In this document: positions 7,000-31,569 of the stretch, one piece after another | Layout of the letters: the number at the start of each line of letters is the position of its first letter | Position numbering within the stretch: the stretch's first letter is position 1 | Source of the DNA: a virus | Lineage: Duplodnaviria > Caudoviricetes | IMG/VR virus record: IMGVR_UViG_3300027828_000080 | Location: 1 to 31,987 of that record | Length of the DNA stretch: 31,987 nucleotides | Strand: one strand, 5' to 3' | Made by a program: the position numbers and the translations under genes | The notes under the pieces: model-generated | Databases searched by the model: none | Told to the model about the DNA's origin: nothing | Seen by the model: only the letters and a program-made list of their open reading frames with translations

Positions 7000-7016
7000 G
7001 TTACCAAAATGGGAAA
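7000..7016. promoter_or_regulatory. Operator-like palindrome copy A (GTTACC-AAAAT-GGGAAA), over the -10 of a leftward promoter TTGACC-17-CATTTT (7034..7006)
   Basis: Three mismatches to GTTGCC-N5-GGCAAC. Same position relative to its promoter as copy D. Confidence 0.5.
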
Positions 7017-11713: not shown

Positions 11714-12097
11714 ATGGCAATCACCAATGAAGAACGGCTCCACATAGCCTGCGCGCAGTACCTGGATGTCAGGCTGCGGGGCAAGGCTATGTGGTGGCAT
11801 ACCGCAAACGAGCGCCAAACCAACGTCAGGCGCGGCGCGAAACTCAAACGTATGGGCGTCCGGGCCGGGCTGCCTGACATTTTCATTCTCAAGCCGATCT
11901 CGGCGGCCGGGGCCGACCAGGGCGATGATCCGGTCACTATCGGCCGACTGTACGCCGTCGAGCTGAAATCGCTCGAGGGCCGCCTGAGCCCGGTTCAGCG
12001 CACGCGAATCCAAGAGCTGGGCGCGAACGGGTGCCCAACCGTCGTGGTCAGGGAGCTAAAAACCCTGATCGAGGCCCTTGATCAATGGGGGCTCTGA
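11714..12097 (+). CDS. VRR-NUC domain nuclease (Holliday-junction resolvase-like)
   Basis: AAGGAGG RBS. EERLH...HTANE...LKRMGVRAGLPD...AVELKSLEGRLSPVQ is a PD-(D/E)xK pattern. Confidence 0.88.
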   Translation: MAITNEERLHIACAQYLDVRLRGKAMWWHTANERQTNVRRGAKLKRMGVRAGLPDIFILKPISAAGADQGDDPVTIGRLYAVELKSLEGRLSPVQRTRIQELGANGCPTVVVRELKTLIEALDQWGL

Positions 12098-12654
12098 TGG
12101 TCAAGCGCGCAGGATTTTCATGGACCGATGAAATGGTGGACCGCGTGCGCGAGCTTGCCACTGACTATTCCGCGGCGGTCGTGGCCCGGATGATCAGTGA
12201 TGAGTTCCATCCGGTGACACGCAACGCCGTGCTGGGGATCGGTCACCGTAAGGGCATCGCGTTCAACGCCGAAAATACGGCGCGGCGGCGGCGCCCGCCG
12301 GTCAGGGTCGCCAAATCAGCCGGGCGCGGCAAGCCGCCACGCCCCTCAGAGGCCGACAAGCAATTCAAATTCGGCCAACGGCCGCTGAGCCGTGCTGAGC
12401 TCAAAGAGCAGAAATGTCTGGCCGAAGCGAACCGCCTGACCGACGTGCGGTCCAAGCCCGGTGACCCGGCGCCGGTCGATCCGCCGATGCTCCTGAAGGA
12501 CCACCGGGCAGGGCAGTGCCTCTGGGTCCATGGTGACCCGAAAGAGGGCTCTTACCGGCTGTGTGGCCATGCCATCGTGCCGGGCACACCGTACTGCCCG
12601 GCCCACAAGGCCAGGACAACGGTGAAGGCATACGTCCGACTGAGGGACCGCTAA
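12097..12654 (+). CDS. gcrA: GcrA-family cell-cycle transcriptional regulator
   Basis: N-terminal WTDEMVDRVREL...SAAVVA...VTRNAVLGIGHR and C-terminal CLWVHGDP...LCGH...GTPYCPAH. Confidence 0.88.
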   Translation: MVKRAGFSWTDEMVDRVRELATDYSAAVVARMISDEFHPVTRNAVLGIGHRKGIAFNAENTARRRRPPVRVAKSAGRGKPPRPSEADKQFKFGQRPLSRAELKEQKCLAEANRLTDVRSKPGDPAPVDPPMLLKDHRAGQCLWVHGDPKEGSYRLCGHAIVPGTPYCPAHKARTTVKAYVRLRDR

Positions 12655-14501: not shown

Positions 14502-14518
14502 GTTGCCAATTTGGCAAC
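14502..14518. promoter_or_regulatory. Operator-like palindrome copy C (perfect GTTGCCAA-T-TTGGCAAC) within promoter TTGCCA-17-CATGGT (14503..14531)
   Basis: Perfect 8-bp-arm inverted repeat in an intergenic gap, following a GCGGCAC/GTGCCGC hairpin at 14474-14490. Confidence 0.72.
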
Positions 14519-15620: not shown

Positions 15621-16595
15621 ATGGATCTCGTGATTATCGAAAGCCCGTATGCGGGCAACATCACCAAGAACGTTGGCTATGCGCGCCGTTGCATGGCCGA
15701 TTCGCTCTCGCGCGGCGAGGCGCCGATCGCCTCGCACCTGATTTACACCCAGCCCGGCATCCTTCGGGACCATGATCCTGACGAGCGAAAGCATGGGATA
15801 CAGGCTGGGCAGGCATGGATGGAAAAGGCCGACCGGGTCGTTGTTTACACCGACTACGGAATCACAGACGGCATGGCCATCGGCGTCGAGCGCGCCGGTC
15901 AGCTCGGGATCGAAGTCTCGTACCGGCAGATCGGGCGGCCAGAGGACGGGGACGGCGGCGACCCGCTGCGGCCCAGGGTCAGCGCGTCGATCGAGGCGCC
16001 GGAAGAAGAGTTTGTGCTGGCCGAGGGCGTTGAGGTCAGACAGTTCAGCGCGAAGAACGTCCCTGAGCTCGGGGTTGGTATTTTGGTCTGGCAGATCGAG
16101 GACGGCCGACAGGCCGAACCAACGGCCCGCGCACGGCTGCTCTGGGACGGCCGTGAGGGCCTGGCCCGGGCCGCATTCAACGCCTACGAGGTGGCCCGGA
16201 TCCCGTTTGAGGGGATGACCACAAAAGACCTTGATGAGATCAGGTCGGCGCTGGGCACAGCCATTATTGAATTCGCCCCTGAAATCTTCCTGCGGTCCGA
16301 AACCATCGGCGGTGACCTCGGGCTCGGGCTTCGAACCATCAAGCCCGGTGGGCCGGACCAGGTCGCGATCAGTGTCGACTACGATCAATCTGGCGACCCT
16401 TTGCACGACGGAGTGCCAGAGCTCGGTGACTGGCTCAGGGATCTGTTTCAGGCCGGGTGCCCAGCACACCTGCTATCAAAGGTCTGCCGGGCCATGGAGA
16501 GCGCCGAGAGCGGCGAAAGCATCACGGTCGAATGGGAGGGATTCCCTGGTGGCGTGGCCACGGTCACGCGGCGCAAGTTCGGGCCCGCGGCCTAG
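15621..16595 (+). CDS. Nucleoside 2-deoxyribosyltransferase-like (DUF4406/DUF7768-type) domain fused to an unknown C-terminal domain
   Basis: VIIESPYAG...NVGYARRC...GEAPIASHL...ER..GI.AG.AWMEKAD.VVVYTDYGITDGM..G in aa 1-105. GAGGAGG RBS. Confidence 0.72.
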   Translation: MDLVIIESPYAGNITKNVGYARRCMADSLSRGEAPIASHLIYTQPGILRDHDPDERKHGIQAGQAWMEKADRVVVYTDYGITDGMAIGVERAGQLGIEVSYRQIGRPEDGDGGDPLRPRVSASIEAPEEEFVLAEGVEVRQFSAKNVPELGVGILVWQIEDGRQAEPTARARLLWDGREGLARAAFNAYEVARIPFEGMTTKDLDEIRSALGTAIIEFAPEIFLRSETIGGDLGLGLRTIKPGGPDQVAISVDYDQSGDPLHDGVPELGDWLRDLFQAGCPAHLLSKVCRAMESAESGESITVEWEGFPGGVATVTRRKFGPAA

Positions 16596-16726: not shown

Positions 16727-17293
16727 ATGGCACACCACACAATTCGAGACGAGGAGGAGGACCGCCAGGCCTACGAGTCGCTCTGGTATCACGCCCTGAT
16801 CGGGCTGGCCTACGTCGCTCAGGACGGCACGTTCAAACGAGCGAACCCGGCCATGCAACGCATCGTCGGCTACACCGAGGCCGAGCTCCAATCCAGACGA
16901 TTCCAGGACATCACGGTGCCGGGAGACGTTGTCGCTGACGAGATCATGGCGGACAAAGTGGCGCGCGGTGAGGTTGACCACTACGACATGAACAAGGGCT
17001 ACATCCACAAGCTCGGCCACATCGTTCCGGTCCGCCTTCGTGTCGTGGGCCTGCACAGCGAGAACGGATTCGAGTTCTTTGTTTCCCAGATGGCTGAAAT
17101 CCACCAGCCCCTGGTCACGGTACCACCGGCCATGCACGGCGGGTTTCATCCCATGACAGCTGGCGAGATCAAGTGGACGAACATCGGCACCATGGTTTGG
17201 CGGGATCTGCCGAAGTGGGCAATCATCGTCGGCATGGTCTCGACCGCGATCGCAGGCGCCGTGGTCACGCTGAACCAGCTCGGCATTATCTGA
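16727..17293 (+). CDS. Stand-alone PAS (S-box) domain protein with a C-terminal transmembrane helix
   Basis: ALIGLAYVAQDGTFKRANPAMQRIVGYTEAEL..RRFQDIT.PGD...YIHKLGHIVPV is a PAS/PAC pattern. TM segment WAIIVGMVSTAIAGAVVTL. Confidence 0.85.
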   Translation: MAHHTIRDEEEDRQAYESLWYHALIGLAYVAQDGTFKRANPAMQRIVGYTEAELQSRRFQDITVPGDVVADEIMADKVARGEVDHYDMNKGYIHKLGHIVPVRLRVVGLHSENGFEFFVSQMAEIHQPLVTVPPAMHGGFHPMTAGEIKWTNIGTMVWRDLPKWAIIVGMVSTAIAGAVVTLNQLGII

Positions 17294-17312: not shown

Positions 17313-17329
17313 GTTGCCAGTGTGGCAAT
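17313..17329. promoter_or_regulatory. Operator-like palindrome copy D (GTTGCC-AGTGT-GGCAAT) over the -10 of promoter TTGACT-17-CAGTGT (17295..17323)
   Basis: One mismatch to consensus. Intergenic, just upstream of the AGGAGG RBS of the MTase. Confidence 0.7.
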
Positions 17330-23501: not shown

Positions 23502-23916
23502 GGACCAGCGCAAGATCGTGCGGATCAGCGCGGCCATGGGCCTGCGCCGTGAGCAGATTTGCCTTCTCGTCCTCCAGGACGGTGCACCGATCAGCGAAAA
23601 TACGCTGCGCAAGCACTACACCGAGGAGCTCGACACAGGCGACGTCCAGGCCAACTATGACGTGGCGGCCATCGCCTACAAAACAGCCACGGACAAGACG
23701 CTGTTCGGCACTGCGGCGCAGGGCAACATGGTCCGCTATTGGCTCAGCGCGCGGGCCGGATGGAAGGAAGGCATGACCCATGAGCACACCGGACCAGACG
23801 GACAACCGCTCGAGTCCATTGATGCGAAGTGGGCAGAGCTTGAACGCCGAATCATTGGCATCGCTGAGTCCGCAGGAGCTGGTCGCAGCGCTGGCGGCGC
23901 TGAAGGAGACGCTTAG
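23470..23916 (+). CDS. Terminase small subunit (putative)
   Basis: HTH-like ISENTLRKHYTEEL..G, WLSARAGWKE and EHTGPDGQPL. Immediately upstream of TerL. Confidence 0.75.
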   Translation: MSAGKEHVPTEDQRKIVRISAAMGLRREQICLLVLQDGAPISENTLRKHYTEELDTGDVQANYDVAAIAYKTATDKTLFGTAAQGNMVRYWLSARAGWKEGMTHEHTGPDGQPLESIDAKWAELERRIIGIAESAGAGRSAGGAEGDA

Positions 23917-25183
23917 CGGCGCTGAGCTCGACGCACTTCTCGTCGATTACGAGTTCTGGGCTCGGCCCAACCAGCTTCCACCGGCGTGGGAGTGGTCCAC
24001 ATGGCTTGTTCTGGCCGGCCGCGGGTTCGGTAAGACCTGGGTCGGATCACACGCGACCAGCGCGGCCGTGATCGGCAGGACGCCGTTGTCAGGCGGTGCC
24101 CGTCACAACGTCGCGATCGTGGCCGAGACGGCGGCCGACGCCCGAGACGTCATGGTTGAGGGCCCGGCCGGGATCCTTGCGCAGACCCCGAAGGACTACC
24201 GCCCTCTCTATGAGCCGTCCAAGCGCCGCCTGACCTGGCCGAACGGAGCGACAGGTACCCTGTTCAACGCGACCGAGCCGGATCAGCTGCGTGGCCCGCA
24301 GCACGACTGGGCATGGTGCGACGAGGCCGCTAAGTGGCAGTACGCCCAGGAGACCTGGGACATGCTGCAGTTCGGCATGCGACTCGGCCGGCTCCCCCAA
24401 GTGGTGGTGACCACGACCCCGCGCCCGATCAAACTGATCAAGGAGCTGCTGGCCGACCCGGGCACAGCGGTGACGCGAGGCGCAACCATGGACAACCGGG
24501 CCAATCTGGCCGCGTCGTTCATCAAGAAGATCCACGACAAGTATGAGGGCACCCGACTGGGCCGGCAGGAGCTCTACGCCGAGGTGCTCGATGACGTTCC
24601 GGGCGCGCTGTGGCGCCGTCAACAGATCGAGGCCAGCCGAGTGCGGCTCGGCGAACACATTAACATCGACGATCTGCAGCGCATCGTGGTCGCGATCGAC
24701 CCGCCCGCAACGTCCGGCGAAGACGCTGACGAGTGTGGCATCGTGGTCTGCGGAATCGATCGCAAGGACCCGCCACACCTCTACGTGCTGCAAGACCTCA
24801 GCTTCCCCCAGGCCAGCCCCACTGCGTGGGCCAGCACGGCCTGTGCGGCGTTTCACCAATGGAAAGCCGACCGCATCATCGGCGAAGTGAACAACGGCGG
24901 TGAGATGGTCGAGGCCGTGATCAGGGCGCACGATCCGAACGTACCGCTCCGGTCAGTACACGCCACGCGAGGGAAGGTTCGGCGCGCTGAGCCGATTGCC
25001 GCCTTGTGGGAGCAGGGCCGCGGGCATATTGTGGGCGCCATGCCGCAGCTGGAGGACCAGATGGCTGAGATGACGCCGGACTTTGATTCCAAGGTAGCGG
25101 GCTACAGCCCTGACCACCTCGACGCCATGGTCTGGGCCGCTACGGACCTGACAGAGGCACCCACCGACGACCTGTTGCTATAG
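23780..25183 (+). CDS. terL: Terminase large subunit (Terminase_6 / GTA-like); start may be 23822 or later
   Basis: Walker A LAGRGFGKT, Walker B WCDE, VTTTP, and nuclease motifs VVAIDPP and SPDHLDAMVWA. Confidence 0.95.
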   Translation: MSTPDQTDNRSSPLMRSGQSLNAESLASLSPQELVAALAALKETLSGAELDALLVDYEFWARPNQLPPAWEWSTWLVLAGRGFGKTWVGSHATSAAVIGRTPLSGGARHNVAIVAETAADARDVMVEGPAGILAQTPKDYRPLYEPSKRRLTWPNGATGTLFNATEPDQLRGPQHDWAWCDEAAKWQYAQETWDMLQFGMRLGRLPQVVVTTTPRPIKLIKELLADPGTAVTRGATMDNRANLAASFIKKIHDKYEGTRLGRQELYAEVLDDVPGALWRRQQIEASRVRLGEHINIDDLQRIVVAIDPPATSGEDADECGIVVCGIDRKDPPHLYVLQDLSFPQASPTAWASTACAAFHQWKADRIIGEVNNGGEMVEAVIRAHDPNVPLRSVHATRGKVRRAEPIAALWEQGRGHIVGAMPQLEDQMAEMTPDFDSKVAGYSPDHLDAMVWAATDLTEAPTDDLLL

Positions 25184-25192
25184 GGGACAGCC

Positions 25193-26506
25193 ATGGCCAG
25201 ATTTCGCGACACGGTTTCCTCAATGGTTCCGTGGATCAAGCGCTCAGGAGTTTCAAGGCTTCTCGTGACGTACGGGCTCGGTCAGCCCAAGGCGACGCCG
25301 CGAAACTACACAGCCCTCTCGAAAGAGGGCTACCAGATGAACGCGATCGTGTTCCGGTGCGTGAACCTCATCGCCGGATCGGCATCGACCGTTCCGTTGC
25401 GCCTGAAGATGAAAGACACCGACGAGGTCATTGATTCTCATCCTATTCTCGACCTGCTGGCCCGGCCCAACGTCAAGGACCGCAACTGGGCAAACCTGGT
25501 CATGCAGGCCGTCGCGTTCCGGCTGTTGAGCGGCAACACCTACTTCGAGGGCACCGAGTCCAAGATCCGGTCCAAGTCTCCGCCGCTCGAGATCTTCACC
25601 CACCGGCCGGACCGCATGAAGGTCGTGCCAGGCCCTCACGGTCTGCCCGAGAAGTTCGTCTACGCCATCGGATCAAACAAAAGGGAGTGGGCGGTTAACC
25701 CGGTCGACGGCTCCGGCCCGATCCTTCACATCAAGCGATTCAACCCGCTCGATGACTGGTATGGCATGTCACCGATCGAGGCTGCGGCGATGGGCATCGA
25801 CGCACACAACGACGCGAATCGGTGGAACACCTCCCAGCTGCAAAACTCTGGAAAGCCGAGCATGGCCTTGGTCTACACGCCGCGCGAAGGCCTCGCCGCG
25901 CTGACCCGCGAGCAGTACGACCGCACAAAGAAATGGATCAAGGAAGAATTCGAGGGGCCGGACAACGCCGGCAAGCCCATGGTGATCGGCGGGAATTTCG
26001 ACTTCAAGACCCTGAGCCTGACCCCGCAGGAAATGGAGTGGCTCAAGGGCAAGCAGGACGCGGCGCGCGAGATCTCACTGGCGTTCGACGTGCCCGAGCA
26101 GCTCGTGGGCATCGAGGGCAGCCAGAAGTTCGACAACTTCGAACACGCCATCCTTGCACTCTGGGACTATGCGGTGTGCCCGAACCTGAACGCCGTGGTC
26201 GGTGAGCTCGGCGACTGGCTTCTCCCGCAGTACGATGGGACCGAAGGCATGGTGCTCGAGGCCAATTATGACGACGTGCCGGCCCTGGGACCGCGTCGCC
26301 GCGAGATCGCGGCCAGCCTCAAAGACAAGGCGCATCTGACCATCAACGAGAAGCGCGAGGCCGAGGGCAAGGAGCCTTATCCCGGCGGAGACGTGATCTT
26401 GATCCCGGCCACATCGGTTCCGCTGACCGCATCGGGCCAGCCCGCGTCGACCGAAGACGACCCCAACGATCAGACCCGCGCGGTCCGCCTGGCCTACGGA
26501 GACTAA
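25193..26506 (+). CDS. HK97-family portal protein
   Basis: NAIVFRCVNLIA, HPILDLLARPN, LLSGNTY, FNPLDDWYGMSPIEAA and LTINEKR. Confidence 0.95.
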   Translation: MARFRDTVSSMVPWIKRSGVSRLLVTYGLGQPKATPRNYTALSKEGYQMNAIVFRCVNLIAGSASTVPLRLKMKDTDEVIDSHPILDLLARPNVKDRNWANLVMQAVAFRLLSGNTYFEGTESKIRSKSPPLEIFTHRPDRMKVVPGPHGLPEKFVYAIGSNKREWAVNPVDGSGPILHIKRFNPLDDWYGMSPIEAAAMGIDAHNDANRWNTSQLQNSGKPSMALVYTPREGLAALTREQYDRTKKWIKEEFEGPDNAGKPMVIGGNFDFKTLSLTPQEMEWLKGKQDAAREISLAFDVPEQLVGIEGSQKFDNFEHAILALWDYAVCPNLNAVVGELGDWLLPQYDGTEGMVLEANYDDVPALGPRRREIAASLKDKAHLTINEKREAEGKEPYPGGDVILIPATSVPLTASGQPASTEDDPNDQTRAVRLAYGD

Positions 26507-26510
26507 GCCC

Positions 26511-27353
26511 ATGTTTGCCCCGGCCGGCGCCACAGATGACGAGCTGGGGGCCCGTGCTGGCCGGTTCCTAATGATTGAGGACCGGCTGGCCGCGGCCATG
26601 CGTGGGGCCCTGAACGCCGAGTTTGCCCGCGTCAGGGACGTCGTTTTGTCCAGCCTTGGAGGGTCGTCTGACCGCGATATTGACCGGCGCCTAGCCGTCA
26701 CTTTGGGGCTGATTCCAACGCTTCTTGCCGACCACCCGGACCAGCTCAACCGGATTTTTGTCCAGCATCTTGGGCGCGCATTTGATGTGTTCGGGGAAAT
26801 GGTATTTGACCTGGCGACGGAGATCGGGCGCTCAGGATTCAAGGCTGCCGATGACTTTCGCCCGGATGCGAGGTCGACGTTTCGCGCCGCGCGCCAGGCC
26901 TATCTCGATGAAGAGGGTGGGGCGCACATCGTGCGTATCTCTGACACCACCAGGGTTCAGCTTCTCGGCGAGTTGCAGGACGCCATCATCGACGGCACGG
27001 GGTATGCGGGCGCTGCGGCCGGTATCAGCACTGTAACGGTCGGGGAGATCGGAAGATTTCGCGCCACGACGATCGCCGGAACCGAGATGCACAGCGCCTC
27101 ACAGGCGGCGACCTACGAGGCGCACGGCGCGCTGGTCTCCGAGTTCTCGCTTGTGCGCAAGTGGGTTTCCGTGGAAGATGACCGTCGCCGGGACACGCAC
27201 CGAGCCGCTCATGGTCAAATCGCCCCCGTCGACGGCACGTTTCTGGTCGGCGGATTCAACCTCCGCTATCCTGGGGATCCGCGAGGGCCCGCAAAGGAGA
27301 TCATCAGGTGTCGATGCGTGGCGGCACTGCAGCCACCGGAGTATGACCAATGA
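26511..27353 (+). CDS. Phage minor head protein (SPP1 gp7/MuF-like)
   Basis: RATTIAGTE...KWVSVEDDRRRDTH...HGQ...F.VGG..LRYPGDP.....IIRCRC. Confidence 0.88.
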   Translation: MFAPAGATDDELGARAGRFLMIEDRLAAAMRGALNAEFARVRDVVLSSLGGSSDRDIDRRLAVTLGLIPTLLADHPDQLNRIFVQHLGRAFDVFGEMVFDLATEIGRSGFKAADDFRPDARSTFRAARQAYLDEEGGAHIVRISDTTRVQLLGELQDAIIDGTGYAGAAAGISTVTVGEIGRFRATTIAGTEMHSASQAATYEAHGALVSEFSLVRKWVSVEDDRRRDTHRAAHGQIAPVDGTFLVGGFNLRYPGDPRGPAKEIIRCRCVAALQPPEYDQ

Positions 27354-28027
27354 CCGTGCGATTTGCTGAACTGGATGTCCCCTTCCAGTGCAAGAGCGTC
27401 AAGGCCAGCAACGGGTCAGCGACCTTTGAGGGCATGGCCTCGGTGTTCGGACACCTCGATTCATACAACGACGTCGTCGAGCCCGGCGCGTTCTCTGACA
27501 CGCTCGCCGAGCACGCGGAGAAAAACCGCATGCCGGCCCTGCTTTGGCAGCACTGGTCTGACGAGCCGATTGGGGTCTGGCGCGAAATGCGCGAGACCGA
27601 TGAAGGCCTGTTCGTCCGCGGTGAGCTGTTCACCGATGACATCCCGAAAGCGCGCCAGGCCTATAAGCTGCTCAAGGAAAACGGGCTGTCCGGCCTCAGC
27701 ATCGGCTTCAACATTCTGGAGGCCGACGAGGACAAGGAGGGCATTCGCCATTTGCACGGCATTGACCTTTGGGAGGTCAGCGTCGTAACTTTCCCCGCAC
27801 TGGACACAGCGCGCGTGACCGGCGTTAAGGCCAACTCGATCAAGACGATTCGAGACTTTGAACGCGCGATGCGGTCCATCGGCTACTCCAGCCGTCAGTC
27901 AAAAGCACTGGCAGCGGAGGGCTTTTCGGCCGTCGAACGGGACGTCGATCCGGCCAATCATCGGGACGATGGTCATGAAGTCGTGGTGGCTCGCATGCGC
28001 GAGCTCGCTGAAATATTCAAGTCCTGA
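27350..28027 (+). CDS. HK97-family prohead maturation protease
   Basis: FEGMASVFG..DSYNDVVEPGAF, LLWQH, GLSIGF and LWEVSVVTFPA. Confidence 0.95.
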   Translation: MTVRFAELDVPFQCKSVKASNGSATFEGMASVFGHLDSYNDVVEPGAFSDTLAEHAEKNRMPALLWQHWSDEPIGVWREMRETDEGLFVRGELFTDDIPKARQAYKLLKENGLSGLSIGFNILEADEDKEGIRHLHGIDLWEVSVVTFPALDTARVTGVKANSIKTIRDFERAMRSIGYSSRQSKALAAEGFSAVERDVDPANHRDDGHEVVVARMRELAEIFKS

Positions 28028-28038
28028 GGAGGATCGAT

Positions 28039-29373
28039 ATGGACAACAAGGTTCTGGAAAAAGGCCTCGACGACCTCAAGAGCGGGTTCGAAGAGTTCAA
28101 GCAAAAGAACGACGAGCGGCTCGAGCAGCTCGAAAAGGGCAGCGAGGACGTGATCACCAAAGAGCACGTCGATCGGATCAATGAAGATCTGAGCAAGAAG
28201 CTCGACACCCTCAAGGAAGCGTTCGACCAGGTCGAAAAGGACCAGAAGGCCGAGCAGGAGCGCGCTGAAAAGCTCGAGAAGCTCCTTGCCCGTATGCCGA
28301 CCGGCACGACCGAGCGCGACGCAGAGCACGCACTGACCGTCGGCCAACAGCTCAAAAGCTTCAATGCGCTGATCAAGGAAGTGGACAAGGCCAAGGAAGC
28401 CGACGCCGAATCCCTGATCGCTTACAATGAAAACTTCGAACACGCGCTGCGCCGCGGCAAGCTGACCCCCGACCAGGAAAAGGCTCTGGCCGTTGGCCAG
28501 GACCCGGACGGCGGGTACTGGGTGAGCCCAGACAAGAGCGGCGAGATCGTCAAGATCGTCCACGAGACGTCTCCGATTCGCCAGCAATGCTCTGTGGTCC
28601 AGATCGGGACCGACGCGCTCGAGGGCACCCGTGACCTCCAGCAAGGCGCCGCGTCCTGGGTGACCGAGCTTGAGTCGCGCACCGAGTCGTCCACGCCTCA
28701 GATCGAGGTCTGGCGCATTCCGGTGCACGAGCTGCACGCTCAGCCCGCCGCGACCCAGAAGATGCTCGACGACGCTCAGTTTGACGTCGAGGGCTGGCTC
28801 GCCGACAAGACGGCCGAGGCCTTCATGCTCGCGGAGAACACCGCGTTTGTGTCTGGCACCGGCGTTGGTAAGCCCCGCGGGTTCACGACCTACGCCGCAG
28901 GTGTTCCGAGCTCCACCACGTTCGAGGTAATCGAGCAGGTCGGGACCGGGACGTCAGCGGCGTTCGATGCGACCACGCCGGGCGATGTGTTCCACACCAC
29001 GATCGGCAAGATGAAGCAGCCCTATCTGGCGGCCTGCCGCTGGGGCATGAATCGCACGACCTTGGCCGAGACGCGCAAGATCAAGGACGGTGACGGCACG
29101 TACCTCTGGGAGAAGTCCTTCCAGGCCAATCAGCCGTTCATCCTCTTGGGCTACCCGGTCGATATGTTCGAGGACATGGCTGCGATCGCTGGCAACTCGC
29201 TCTCGATCGCGTTTGCCAACTGGCGCCGGGCGTACACCGTGGTCGACCGCATCGGGATCCGCGTTCTGCGCGACCCGTACACGTCGAAGCCCAAGGTGCT
29301 GTTCGACACCACGAAGCGGGTCGGCGGCGACGTCACCAACTTCGAGGCCATCAAGCTGATCAAGTTCGGTTAA
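28039..29373 (+). CDS. HK97-fold major capsid protein with an N-terminal coiled-coil delta domain
   Basis: DPDGGYWV, SPIRQ, ATQKMLDDA.FDVE.WL, AFVSGTGVGKPRG and VLRDPYTSKPKVLF..TKRVGG. Confidence 0.96.
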   Translation: MDNKVLEKGLDDLKSGFEEFKQKNDERLEQLEKGSEDVITKEHVDRINEDLSKKLDTLKEAFDQVEKDQKAEQERAEKLEKLLARMPTGTTERDAEHALTVGQQLKSFNALIKEVDKAKEADAESLIAYNENFEHALRRGKLTPDQEKALAVGQDPDGGYWVSPDKSGEIVKIVHETSPIRQQCSVVQIGTDALEGTRDLQQGAASWVTELESRTESSTPQIEVWRIPVHELHAQPAATQKMLDDAQFDVEGWLADKTAEAFMLAENTAFVSGTGVGKPRGFTTYAAGVPSSTTFEVIEQVGTGTSAAFDATTPGDVFHTTIGKMKQPYLAACRWGMNRTTLAETRKIKDGDGTYLWEKSFQANQPFILLGYPVDMFEDMAAIAGNSLSIAFANWRRAYTVVDRIGIRVLRDPYTSKPKVLFDTTKRVGGDVTNFEAIKLIKFG

Positions 29374-29912: not shown

Positions 29913-29944
29913 CCCCGGGCGCCTTACAGCGCTCGGGGTTTTTT
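29913..29944 (+). terminator. Rho-independent terminator of the head operon
   Basis: 10-bp stem CCCCGGGCGC/GCGCTCGGGG (one G-U), 6-nt loop, then TTTTTT. Confidence 0.88.
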
Positions 29945-31127
29945 ATTCCTGATCGGCGCGGCGGGCCTGGTGGATCACCTGCCGGAACAGCCAGGTCTGC
30001 AGGGATCTCGTGTGGTCAGAGTAGCCCGTACTGATGTGGACCCACTCTTCGAACAGGGCGTGGATGAGCATGTCCAGGCCCTGATCAAAGCACTCCTGAG
30101 AAATGTAAGACCGGCCGGATTTGGCCATGGCGAGCGTGCCATCCGAATCGATCTTCTCAACGAAGATGATCTCGGCCGATGTCACGTCATAACCGGCCCG
30201 GGCCAGAAATCCTGTCGCCTCTTCGTACATCGCGCGCTGAGCAGCGGTGAGCTCAACGCCGTAGTGTGACGCTTCGGAAATCTTGCGGTGCGTGTGGTAG
30301 ACCGAGGCAACGGAACCGACCGGCACACGCCCCTGACCGGCCATCTCGTCGACCACGTCGAGCCATGTCTCGCTGGGGTCGGACCCGCACCCAGCCCAAT
30401 CAAAGCTGCCCTCCATGGCCTGATCACCGGCATTCAGTGCGTCATAGATCAGGTCCCGGTCGTCGCACGCGATAATCGATCTGATCACGGCGTCCCGCGC
30501 CTGAAACGCCCACCGGGCCGTGCGGTCCTCGGTCAGGTCGATCTTTCTCGTCACGTTGTAGGTCTTGGCACTGGGCCGATCGAGGGAGGCGACGGCCACA
30601 CCCTTGTAGAAGATCTTGGTGCTGGTCCCGGGCAGGACCTCGCACTCGGACAGAACGGTCCGCTCGCGTTCCGGCTCGATCAGATAGAGATTCCGGTCAC
30701 GGTACGCGGACTCGACGCCCGGATCATCGACGCAGATGATCGTACAGCCGACGCTGGCGGCCTGAACGCCACCGGACGGCTCCTTGTCGGTCATGGACCC
30801 GCCTTCGTCCCATGCGTTGCAGGCCAGCTCCCTGAGGGCCATCCAGTCCTCCCAGGTCTTGCCCATCTTGGTGGTGAAGCCCAGCGGTTCATCGTTCAGC
30901 GTGACGATGTCGTGCGGTTCTCCGCGAATCACCTCGGTCGCCGTGCCGAACTTGCACTCGACGCCATTCAGCCAGGCCGAAACCGACCCGCCGTTCCTGA
31001 GTATGGTGGCCACGGCGTACTTGAATCCGGTGCCGAAAAACCCGATGGCCGAGCCGGTTTTGACGTTCACGCCCATGACGGTGAGTGCGCGCAGGTCAGC
31101 CACGCCTGGGTTCTGGAAATAAATCAT
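29943..31127 (-). CDS. GHKL/HATPase-like protein with permuted motif order and a C-terminal zincin-like motif
   Basis: GGAGG RBS before the ATG at 31127. IGFFGTGFKYA (aa 28-38), RELACNAWD (aa 99-107) and C-terminal HALFEEWVH...DH. Confidence 0.72.
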   Translation of the reverse strand: MIYFQNPGVADLRALTVMGVNVKTGSAIGFFGTGFKYAVATILRNGGSVSAWLNGVECKFGTATEVIRGEPHDIVTLNDEPLGFTTKMGKTWEDWMALRELACNAWDEGGSMTDKEPSGGVQAASVGCTIICVDDPGVESAYRDRNLYLIEPERERTVLSECEVLPGTSTKIFYKGVAVASLDRPSAKTYNVTRKIDLTEDRTARWAFQARDAVIRSIIACDDRDLIYDALNAGDQAMEGSFDWAGCGSDPSETWLDVVDEMAGQGRVPVGSVASVYHTHRKISEASHYGVELTAAQRAMYEEATGFLARAGYDVTSAEIIFVEKIDSDGTLAMAKSGRSYISQECFDQGLDMLIHALFEEWVHISTGYSDHTRSLQTWLFRQVIHQARRADQE

Positions 31128-31166
31128 GAGATCCTCCTTCTGTTGGTCCCCGCACAATGCCCTTGC

Positions 31167-31183
31167 GTTGCTGGAATGGCAAC
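31167..31183. promoter_or_regulatory. Operator-like palindrome copy F (GTTGCT-GGAAT-GGCAAC) in overlapping divergent promoters
   Basis: Rightward TTGCGT-17-TAAAGT (31163..31191) and leftward TTGCCA-17-CATTGT (31182..31154). Confidence 0.7.
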
Positions 31184-31197
31184 GCTAAAGTGGCGGG

Positions 31198-31393
31198 GTC
31201 AGTGAGGCGGCGTGGAAAGCAGACACGCTGCACAACTAGCCAAGAGCATCCGAAACCGACTCTCGGGCGATGTCTTGGATAAGAGAGGGTCCCGAGAGGG
31301 GTAGCCGGTTGACAGCCCTAGCCGGACGCACGGCGGTAAGCCCGCCTGACGGTGGAAAGACACAAGTTGGAGTGGCGCCCAGCCCTCGCTGAC
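31198..31393 (+). ncRNA. Candidate structured ncRNA with tRNA-like topology (family not recognised)
   Basis: Terminal 10-bp stem GTCAGTGAGG/CCTCGCTGAC, D-arm-like and T-arm-like hairpins, and several internal hairpins. Starts about 7 nt after a predicted -10. No ORF of 60 aa or more covers it. Confidence 0.62.
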
Positions 31394-31400
31394 GCCTTGA

Positions 31401-31417
31401 CTTACCAGATTGGCAAC
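31401..31417. promoter_or_regulatory. Operator-like palindrome copy G (CTTACC-AGATT-GGCAAC) in promoter TTGACT-17-TACACG (31397..31425)
   Basis: Two mismatches. Same register in the spacer as copy F (both spacers end TGGCAACGC before TA). Confidence 0.65.
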
Positions 31418-31433
31418 GCTACACGGGAATCCA

Positions 31434-31544
31434 GACCGGGCCCGCGGCTAGGTGGTTCGCAACCCGCTGATCGGTGGTAGCTCCCCGTGAAGAGGAAGAG
31501 GCTGAGACGGTAAGCACGCCATCGGCGTGTGATGGGGCCCGGTC
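31434..31544 (+). ncRNA. Candidate second structured RNA or 5' leader
   Basis: Perfect 10-bp closing stem GACCGGGCCC/GGGCCCGGTC enclosing hairpins (GG-TTCGCAA-CC and GCACGCC-ATC-GGCGTGT). Begins just after promoter G. Confidence 0.52.
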
Positions 31545-31569
31545 GTTTAACCCAGTGAAGGAGCGCACC

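Follow-up and report, generated by a model that had tools for sequence, protein, structure and literature searches.

Predicted phage RNA genes of a widespread family share a fixed tRNA-shaped frame around an insert that varies between phages

A predicted RNA gene near one end of a tailed-phage contig

The window analyzed here, by which we mean the whole stretch of DNA from position 1 to 31,987, is a 32-kb tailed-phage contig (IMG/VR record IMGVR_UViG_3300027828_000080, Caudoviricetes). Head genes lie at 23780-29373, and genes for a GcrA-like regulator and a PAS-domain protein at 12085-12654 and 16727-17293; the GcrA-like gene points to an alphaproteobacterial host. The RNA lies between a divergent gene for a 394-aa protein and a short ORF, and the features of the region are as follows.

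29943-31127, minus strand: divergent gene for a 394-aa protein (PHROG 8203), weakly GHKL-like; a neighbor, not a partner
31163-31191, plus strand: predicted promoter (-35 TTGCGT at 31163-68, -10 TAAAGT at 31186-91, 17-nt spacer), implied start at ~31198
31168-31182, no strand assigned: degenerate palindromic operator-like site of the TTGCCA-N3-TGGCAA type, in the promoter spacer
31198-31393, plus strand: predicted RNA of 196 nt, a frame around a 137-nt insert
31198-31207, plus strand: 5' strand of the closing (acceptor-like) stem, pairing with 31384-31393
31208-31209, plus strand: CG linker (CG in 208/223 family members)
31210-31228, plus strand: hairpin A (D-arm position), 5 bp with a 9-nt GAAAGCAGA loop
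G31219-C31220, plus strand: predicted kissing pair in the loop of hairpin A
31229-31365, plus strand: variable insert (cargo), 137 nt
31240-31298, plus strand: predicted H-type pseudoknot in the insert, judged on one variant only
31305-25, 31332-46, and 31352-63, plus strand: three further insert hairpins in the frame-constrained fold
31366-31383, plus strand: hairpin B (T-arm position), 5 bp (one G-U) with an 8-nt AGUGGCGC loop
G31375-C31376, plus strand: predicted kissing pair in the loop of hairpin B
31384-31393, plus strand: 3' strand of the closing stem, without an encoded CCA
31397-31425, plus strand: second promoter-like site, which carries the operator-like motif as well
31435-31545, plus strand: second candidate RNA or leader (z = -1.86), which follows a promoter-like site of its own and has a closing stem of 10 bp

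All of the elements named in the original prediction of this RNA (the closing stem, hairpins A and B, and the insert helices) were located, and the tRNA connectivity that it had proposed is present in the window RNA, in a frame that covaries across the family described below. The closing stem has 10 bp, one of them G-U, and hairpin B abuts its 3' strand. The plus strand folds at z = -3.06, with 1 of 200 shuffles as good; the shuffle comparison suggested along with the original prediction thus came out in favor of the plus-strand RNA, which beats the other 199. The minus strand is unremarkable (z = -1.48). In the single-sequence ensemble, hairpin A has a pair probability of 0.98, hairpin B one of 0.2, and the innermost pair of the closing stem one of 0.05, and the frame-constrained fold of the window RNA reaches -78.4 kcal/mol versus -83.5 kcal/mol unconstrained. 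Because its single-sequence pairing is weak and the constrained fold is less stable, hairpin B rests on the family and not on the window sequence.

No Rfam family matched at its gathering score anywhere in the window, none matched over the RNA at E <= 10, and ARAGORN made no call over it. Across 58 related loci, no Rfam family covers the frame, and only neighboring or nested tRNAs score; tmRNA, YrlA, RNase P RNA, SRP RNA, GOLLD, and ROOL gave no Rfam or ARAGORN match, and ARAGORN called no tmRNA among 223 family members. These searches agree with the earlier expectation that no known family covers the RNA and that signatures of tmRNA, RNase P, and SRP are absent, and, with the covariation of the family, they support the view of a stand-alone structured RNA absent from Rfam.

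Scanning metagenomes for relatives of the insert gave 22 matches, of which the 2 true ones were the window sequence and one variant; in the viral scan, 2 of 3 matches were true. This variant (loci L124, L393, and L493; 94% identical over the RNA region) is the only other version of the window insert that was found, and since the scans gave no further relatives, insert covariation is left with one natural variant against which helices can be tested. Its hairpin B reads GCCGG/CCGGC where the window RNA has GUUGG/CCAGC. The main insert helix and a pairing originally listed as an alternative to it can coexist as an H-type pseudoknot, with stem 1 at 31240-50/31269-78 (-9.5 kcal/mol) and stem 2 at 31260-67/31291-98 (-12.7 kcal/mol), each stable alone. 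The sole variant keeps both stems (G-U to G-C and G-C to G-U), and this predicted fold is suggestive only. A coding reading was considered and rejected: in the variant, the minus-strand 54-aa ORF at 31199-31363 has five amino acid differences and no longer has its stop.

The promoter proposed for the RNA stands as a sequence with an implied start at ~31198, but a strict sigma-70 scan called no promoter at the window RNA. The operator-like motif in its spacer occurs again at 31402-31416, 14503-14517, and 17314-17328 and, more weakly, at 7001-7015; there are five matches with <= 2 mismatches versus 1.04 expected, and none of 100 shuffles reached five. Copies sit in promoter spacers or just before genes, and the palindrome is probably the operator of a phage regulator. 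Because both promoter-like sites carry a motif also present at 14503 and 17314, the window RNA is probably under phage control. For the second candidate, at 31435-31545, 13 pattern matches held no relative beyond the window phage and none in named phages; it was rejected as a family member, as it is not matched by the covariance model introduced below.

The family and its shared frame

BLAST against named phages matched only the 5' hairpin of the window RNA. An exact search with the 19-base hairpin A found 121 viral loci in 20 of 64 collection parts, or ~390 in all, and 101 genome-contig stretches, many of them titled Proteobacteria; a search with hairpin B found 122 loci, or ~500 in all. The frame test looked for hairpin A, then hairpin B, and then a 3' strand able to pair with the bases that precede hairpin A. 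Among loci picked by hairpin A alone, the full frame was present in 108/121 viral and 78/101 genome loci, and swapped-5'-arm controls passed in 11 (viral) and 14 (genome) loci. The parser required 6/7 closing pairs, an insert of at least 25 nt, and GC in both loops; it returned 223 distinct members with RNA lengths of 85-251 nt. The family frame consists of a closing stem of mostly 7-9 bp (128 of 183 members), the CG linker, hairpin A, the insert, and hairpin B. Exact hairpin seeds and the GC demand of the parser mean that loop and hairpin invariance is partly built in; compensated stems were nonetheless found in each hairpin when members were picked by the other one. Closing positions 8 and 9, which were not selected for, pair in 77% and 61% of members, and later ones pair in near 40%. 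The closing stem, the 2-nt linker, and the 5-bp hairpin B match the geometry of a tRNA acceptor stem and arm, in which hairpin B would stack on the stem.

For covariation, alignment A1 was assembled from 183 cluster representatives and holds 68 members with unrelated inserts of 62-92 nt. In this alignment, 96.7% of cells are paired, and two-sided changes occur in 16 of 22 pairs, including 9/9 closing pairs and 4/5 pairs of hairpin B; the covariation score is 0.472, versus 0.101 for shuffled and 0.056-0.094 for slid alignments. Among 180 members, the top seven column pairs by mutual information are closing-stem pairs. The covariance model R1, built from A1 members, finds exactly 31198-31393 (53.9 bits) as the sole copy in the window. 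Covariation among homologs, a check put forward with the original prediction, is present in the frame. The RNA is assigned to the plus strand because G-U pairs far exceed A-C pairs in the closing stem (26 versus 1).

Members occur in the cultured Pseudomonas phages PotUPM1, Persinger, and Orimi01 and in Ochrobactrum phage POI1126, and a degenerate copy is present in Sulfitobacter phage pCB2047-A. Sequence conservation of hairpins A and B extends over alpha-, beta-, and gammaproteobacterial records as well as others. The possibility of a core host gene was set aside after a loose first look, with 1 of 101 related bacterial genomes. We are highly confident that the family is a real structured RNA; comparison of sequences shows the predicted frame pairs, the plus strand, the stand-alone position, and the hypervariable insert, and the predicted RNA genes form a family that is widespread among phages.

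The loop consensus is RGUAGCGH for hairpin B and GAAAGCAGA for hairpin A, and the window RNA encodes no CCA, in line with the absence of a T-loop consensus and of CCA remarked on earlier. Both loops carry GC at positions 5-6, placed for antiparallel pairing and flanked by G-U or G-C. In the viral collection, the canonical loop A with its kissing G changed had no matches; loop B with C6 changed had 16, 5 of them with the frame. Two members (L353 and L358) replace the G-C by A-U on both sides, two others (L350 and L352) have other complementary loops, and one (L357) has a mismatch. An element of phage HK620 (about 16110-16191), matched by 369 phage records and without an Rfam match at the gathering level in its region, has a family-type frame with hairpin B GCCGG/CCGGC and loops complementary over 6 nt. 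It has an AA linker and this 6-nt complementarity where the window family has CG and a 2-bp core, and R1 does not find it. Because of the compensated natural variants and the complementary HK620 loops, it is likely that the two loops kiss through two G-C pairs, replacing the D/T-loop elbow. The original prediction was right about the tRNA-like connectivity itself but missed both this likely pairing and the interchangeable cargo.

Genomic setting, expression, and inserts

One explanation of the RNA would make it a cis element or RNA partner of a neighboring gene, for example the one for the divergent ATPase-like protein or one in an antirepressor operon of the C4 type. The divergent arrangement in the window invites this reading, as do one locus (L472) with the RNA directly upstream of a homolog of the 394-aa protein and a ribosome-binding site plus start within ~50 nt downstream in 41/183 members. 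The protein belongs to a family of at least 161 members and has no Pfam or PDB sequence match; its model (pLDDT 92) has weak GHKL-like matches, to Hsp90/MORC folds with a best E of 0.004, and its C-terminal part is zincin-like. Of 80 loci of this protein family, 2 have the RNA within 2.5 kb, one of them being the window phage, and the other 78 lack it at that distance. The ATPase partner suggested earlier is thus not supported, and the ATPase nature of the protein itself rests on the weak GHKL-like folds. Only 5 similar pairs occur among the 185 neighboring ORFs of 93 loci, downstream ORFs are on the same strand in 46 cases and the opposite strand in 46, and the annotated neighbors span head, lysis, integrase, methylase, and nuclease genes (83 neighboring ORFs scanned). 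This explanation is already largely refuted, and we give it hardly any weight. By these sequence comparisons, members have no fixed partner gene and sit behind a predicted promoter of their own or in tRNA arrays.

TAnnnT ends 12-19 nt before the stem junction in 45/183 members; counted by window, there are 48 cases at 12-19 nt upstream versus 4, 11, 12, and 8 in the next windows. Because the distance peaks at 13, the start in the family is placed at the first base of the 7-bp stem. A tRNA lies within 1.5 kb in 10/60 loci, always on the same strand, and directly upstream in three loci, 3-4 nt before the 7-bp stem. Preferences of the RNase P type are modest (G at +1 in 76/183, U at -1 in 70/183), CCA is encoded after 7 or 8 pairs in 4/183 members each, and U-runs follow the closing stem in 19/223.

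Separately, members often have other small-RNA modules beside them, comprising further tRNA-shaped units, second copies, and the Proteo-phage-1 RNA (L018:1541-1610, L083:1536-1653, L062:546-768, L025:1198-1278, and L087:428-506).

Expression data consist of contigs for one relative, L018, and not for the window copy; 8 of 21 matching runs were compared, and two of these, X2 and X13, are taken as RNA runs on a guess. X13 has a single 185-nt contig (1344-1528) without flanks, whose 5' end is the first base of the 7-bp stem, and X12, from another study, stops at 1345, one base from the 3' boundary of that contig. In X2, a contig covers 1332-1548 at a depth of 334, with the downstream flank at 17.5; the missing upstream cover in this run is partly a strain difference. 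Contigs of X4 and X8 extend over the entire stretch, X14 covers part of the RNA together with flanks (1379-1583), the X15 contig runs on past the RNA, and the X1 contig extends from the RNA through the downstream flank without a boundary; X1, X4, and X8 have no 3' boundary at the RNA. Together these contigs give a weak hint that the RNA of this relative may accumulate as a discrete species. No CCA added after transcription is visible in the contigs compared. The X2 contig over the RNA, 279 nt long, is closed on itself and joins the 3' end of the RNA to genomic sequence 32 bases further upstream in a circle-like manner; the 32 extra letters are genomic, as X15 shows, and this self-closing contig is a single observation that may be a library artifact.

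Inserts range from 32 to 198 nt (median, 97) and fall into 183 clusters among the 223 members, so that at least 183 different inserts stand in sharp contrast to an invariant frame. Each has 1-4 outer helices, and a single helix spans >80% of the insert in 86/223, leaving no conserved position for an anticodon arm. Folding is close to that of shuffles (median z of -0.46, with flanks at -0.30 and the window insert at -1.3), and no motif common to the inserts was found; many inserts could be near-neutral, since their folding barely beats shuffles and they share no motif. GNRA-capped hairpins are enriched (25 versus 9.8 by chance), as is the tRNA T-arm motif, found in 10/223 inserts versus 0.41 expected, and Rfam tRNA matches lie inside three inserts. 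A CsrA-type sponge was rejected, GGA loops numbering 37 versus 33. In a 17-member subfamily (16 aligned), insert motifs are near-invariant while the closing stem varies; RNAalifold on the 16 recovered the frame and an insert stem of 3 bp only, owing to misalignment. Whole or partial tRNA-like cloverleaves nested in the frame were identified by ARAGORN and Rfam in L307, L119, L090, and L113.

Such cloverleaves and arms, together with the location of some members in phage tRNA arrays, bring to mind an RNA that serves as a decoy for anticodon nucleases, as had been suggested earlier, or that replaces the tRNAs they cut. The window copy and 213/223 members have no T-arm motif, and the family lacks both a conserved anticodon-arm position and an encoded CCA, so that we regard this explanation as very improbable overall; for the window copy, without an anticodon arm or T-loop, the suggested decoy is unlikely. 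A somewhat better, yet still improbable, explanation is that the frame stabilizes a trans-acting antisense RNA whose insert loops pair with host or distant phage mRNAs, the targets varying by phage. It would suit hypervariable inserts and the conserved single-stranded motifs of the one subfamily, and pairing is presented as a common mode of phage small RNAs in an excerpt of PMC12197685. Against it, complementarity of 93 members to their own flanks (1 kb on each side) is not in excess (mean longest match, 8.60 versus 8.58), there is one 11-mer match versus ~3 expected in 34 kb of the window phage, and U-runs after the closing stem are as rare as given above.

The main rival to a model in which the insert is the cargo is that the frame does the work, acting as a tRNA-shaped ligand for one conserved host factor (RNase P, the ribosome, or a protein that binds or senses tRNA), with the insert as tolerated filler that drifts or captures neighboring sequence, tRNA pieces included. 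Hairpins A and B are conserved in sequence beyond what end protection should need, the inserts fold only slightly better than shuffles, and T4 RNAC carries the 8-nt loop-B motif GAGUAGCG twice. Filler sits poorly, however, with a subfamily that keeps its insert motifs while its closing stem varies, with the enrichment of GNRA caps and T-arms, and with the absence of any parsed member with an insert of <32 nt when the parser floor was 25 nt; moreover, the HK620-type sister has other loop sequences in the same frame. We regard the frame as ligand as a serious but rather unlikely alternative.

Proposed role and comparison with known RNAs

For the explanation that we favor, we put the chances at about even: a stand-alone RNA in which a tRNA-shaped frame stabilizes and presents an exchangeable domain whose binding partner is a host protein. 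The RNA may have a promoter of its own, with transcription beginning at the first base of the stem, or may be released from tRNA-array precursors, presumably with processing by RNase P, and might then accumulate as a discrete RNA, for which one relative is the example. The frame is likely to fold into a three-dimensional tRNA-like L shape; the G-C kiss of loops A and B could lock the elbow and would serve as the D/T-loop contact does in tRNA. Such a frame would likely protect both RNA ends, and the insert would be the working part, displayed as a decoy or ligand that titrates a host factor, most likely one of anti-phage defense or translation; titration of such a factor would explain the rapid turnover of inserts.

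A broader version, which we hold only tentatively, is a general phage RNA display platform, in which a tRNA-derived frame with a kissing-loop elbow, ignored by host aminoacylation and T-loop-reading enzymes, has lineage-specific RNA effectors plugged into it (pseudoknots, tRNA pieces, and aptamer-like folds). If this is true, the family, the HK620-type sister, and T5 RNA2 form a natural library of hundreds of counter-defense or host-takeover RNA effectors, which could be screened by cloning inserts. With members in cultured phages, the question is testable by frame and insert swaps.

Like tRNA (RF00005), the family has a closing stem of at least 7 pairs, a 2-nt linker, a hairpin, a middle domain, a 5-bp hairpin stacked on the stem, and same-strand placement in arrays. 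It differs in lacking a T-loop consensus (its loop has 8 nt), the GG of the D-loop, an anticodon arm, and an encoded CCA, has a 5-bp D-like stem, and is missed by ARAGORN and Rfam. In the engineered tRNA scaffold, a tRNA frame protects a recombinant RNA placed at the anticodon arm. That scaffold is artificial and built on a canonical tRNA, whereas the window family is natural with a noncanonical elbow; a natural, nonchargeable scaffold could serve RNA expression.

The C4 antisense RNAs of P1/P7 (RF01695) and the CI RNA of P4 are, like the family, small phage RNAs with multi-arm folds. They are processed by RNase P, have complementary target sites close by, and are followed by a fixed gene. The family has no Rfam match to them and no fixed downstream gene, and its cis targets are not in excess; an excerpt of PMC2864571 lists C4 as an Rfam family of its own. 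GOLLD is described in passages of PMC12286853 as a phage RNA found close to tRNA islands, conserved at its ends and with a variable linker in which tRNAs sometimes occur, but many of its members exceed 800 nt and form cages, whereas the family spans 85-251 nt and has no Rfam match to GOLLD. The Pas sRNAs of E. coli, terminator-ended Hfq sRNAs according to an excerpt of PMC13192938, were rejected as relatives; a family member had no match in E. coli genomes. No description of the family was found in the literature searched, mostly open full texts, and pieces of the frame may be among the 8,495 unnamed DNA-virus candidates of Fremin et al., going by passages of PMC10690425. A hypervariable insert escapes clustering pipelines based on overall similarity, which may be why Rfam lacks the family.

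Among stable phage RNAs, T4 RNAC and RNAD belong to the tRNA region and are given as of unknown role in excerpts of PMC3014915 and PMC9697503. RNAD holds the complement of the motif found twice in RNAC; neither has an R1 frame match, their predicted folds are different, and RNAC has a canonical T-arm. As an observation on T4 itself (L401:1409-1672, rnaC and rnaD), the complement lies in a hairpin loop of RNAD, and the two RNAs could pair.

The closest known system is T5 RNA2 (AY543070; L403:6960-7084), annotated as a "tRNA-like stable RNA with unknown functions" and located in the tRNA region. Like the family, it has an 8-bp closing stem, a CG linker, a 5-bp hairpin, and an extra multi-hairpin domain, followed by an A and, stacked on the stem, a 5-bp hairpin whose 5' arm is GCAGG; the R1 alignment to RNA2 is in register, with a score that is not significant (7 bits, E of 6.9). 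It keeps a canonical T-loop and a G-rich D-like loop where the family replaces both, and it is nearly whole in T5-like phages (418/445 records at >= 80% cover) where the family swaps its insert. T5 RNA2 is possibly an evolutionary link between the family and tRNA. The stable tRNA-like RNAs of T4 and T5 have had no known role for decades, and a related architecture now appears as a family of hundreds, which is tRNA-scaffold-like, not a tRNA, and best filed among the phage tRNA-like stable RNAs.
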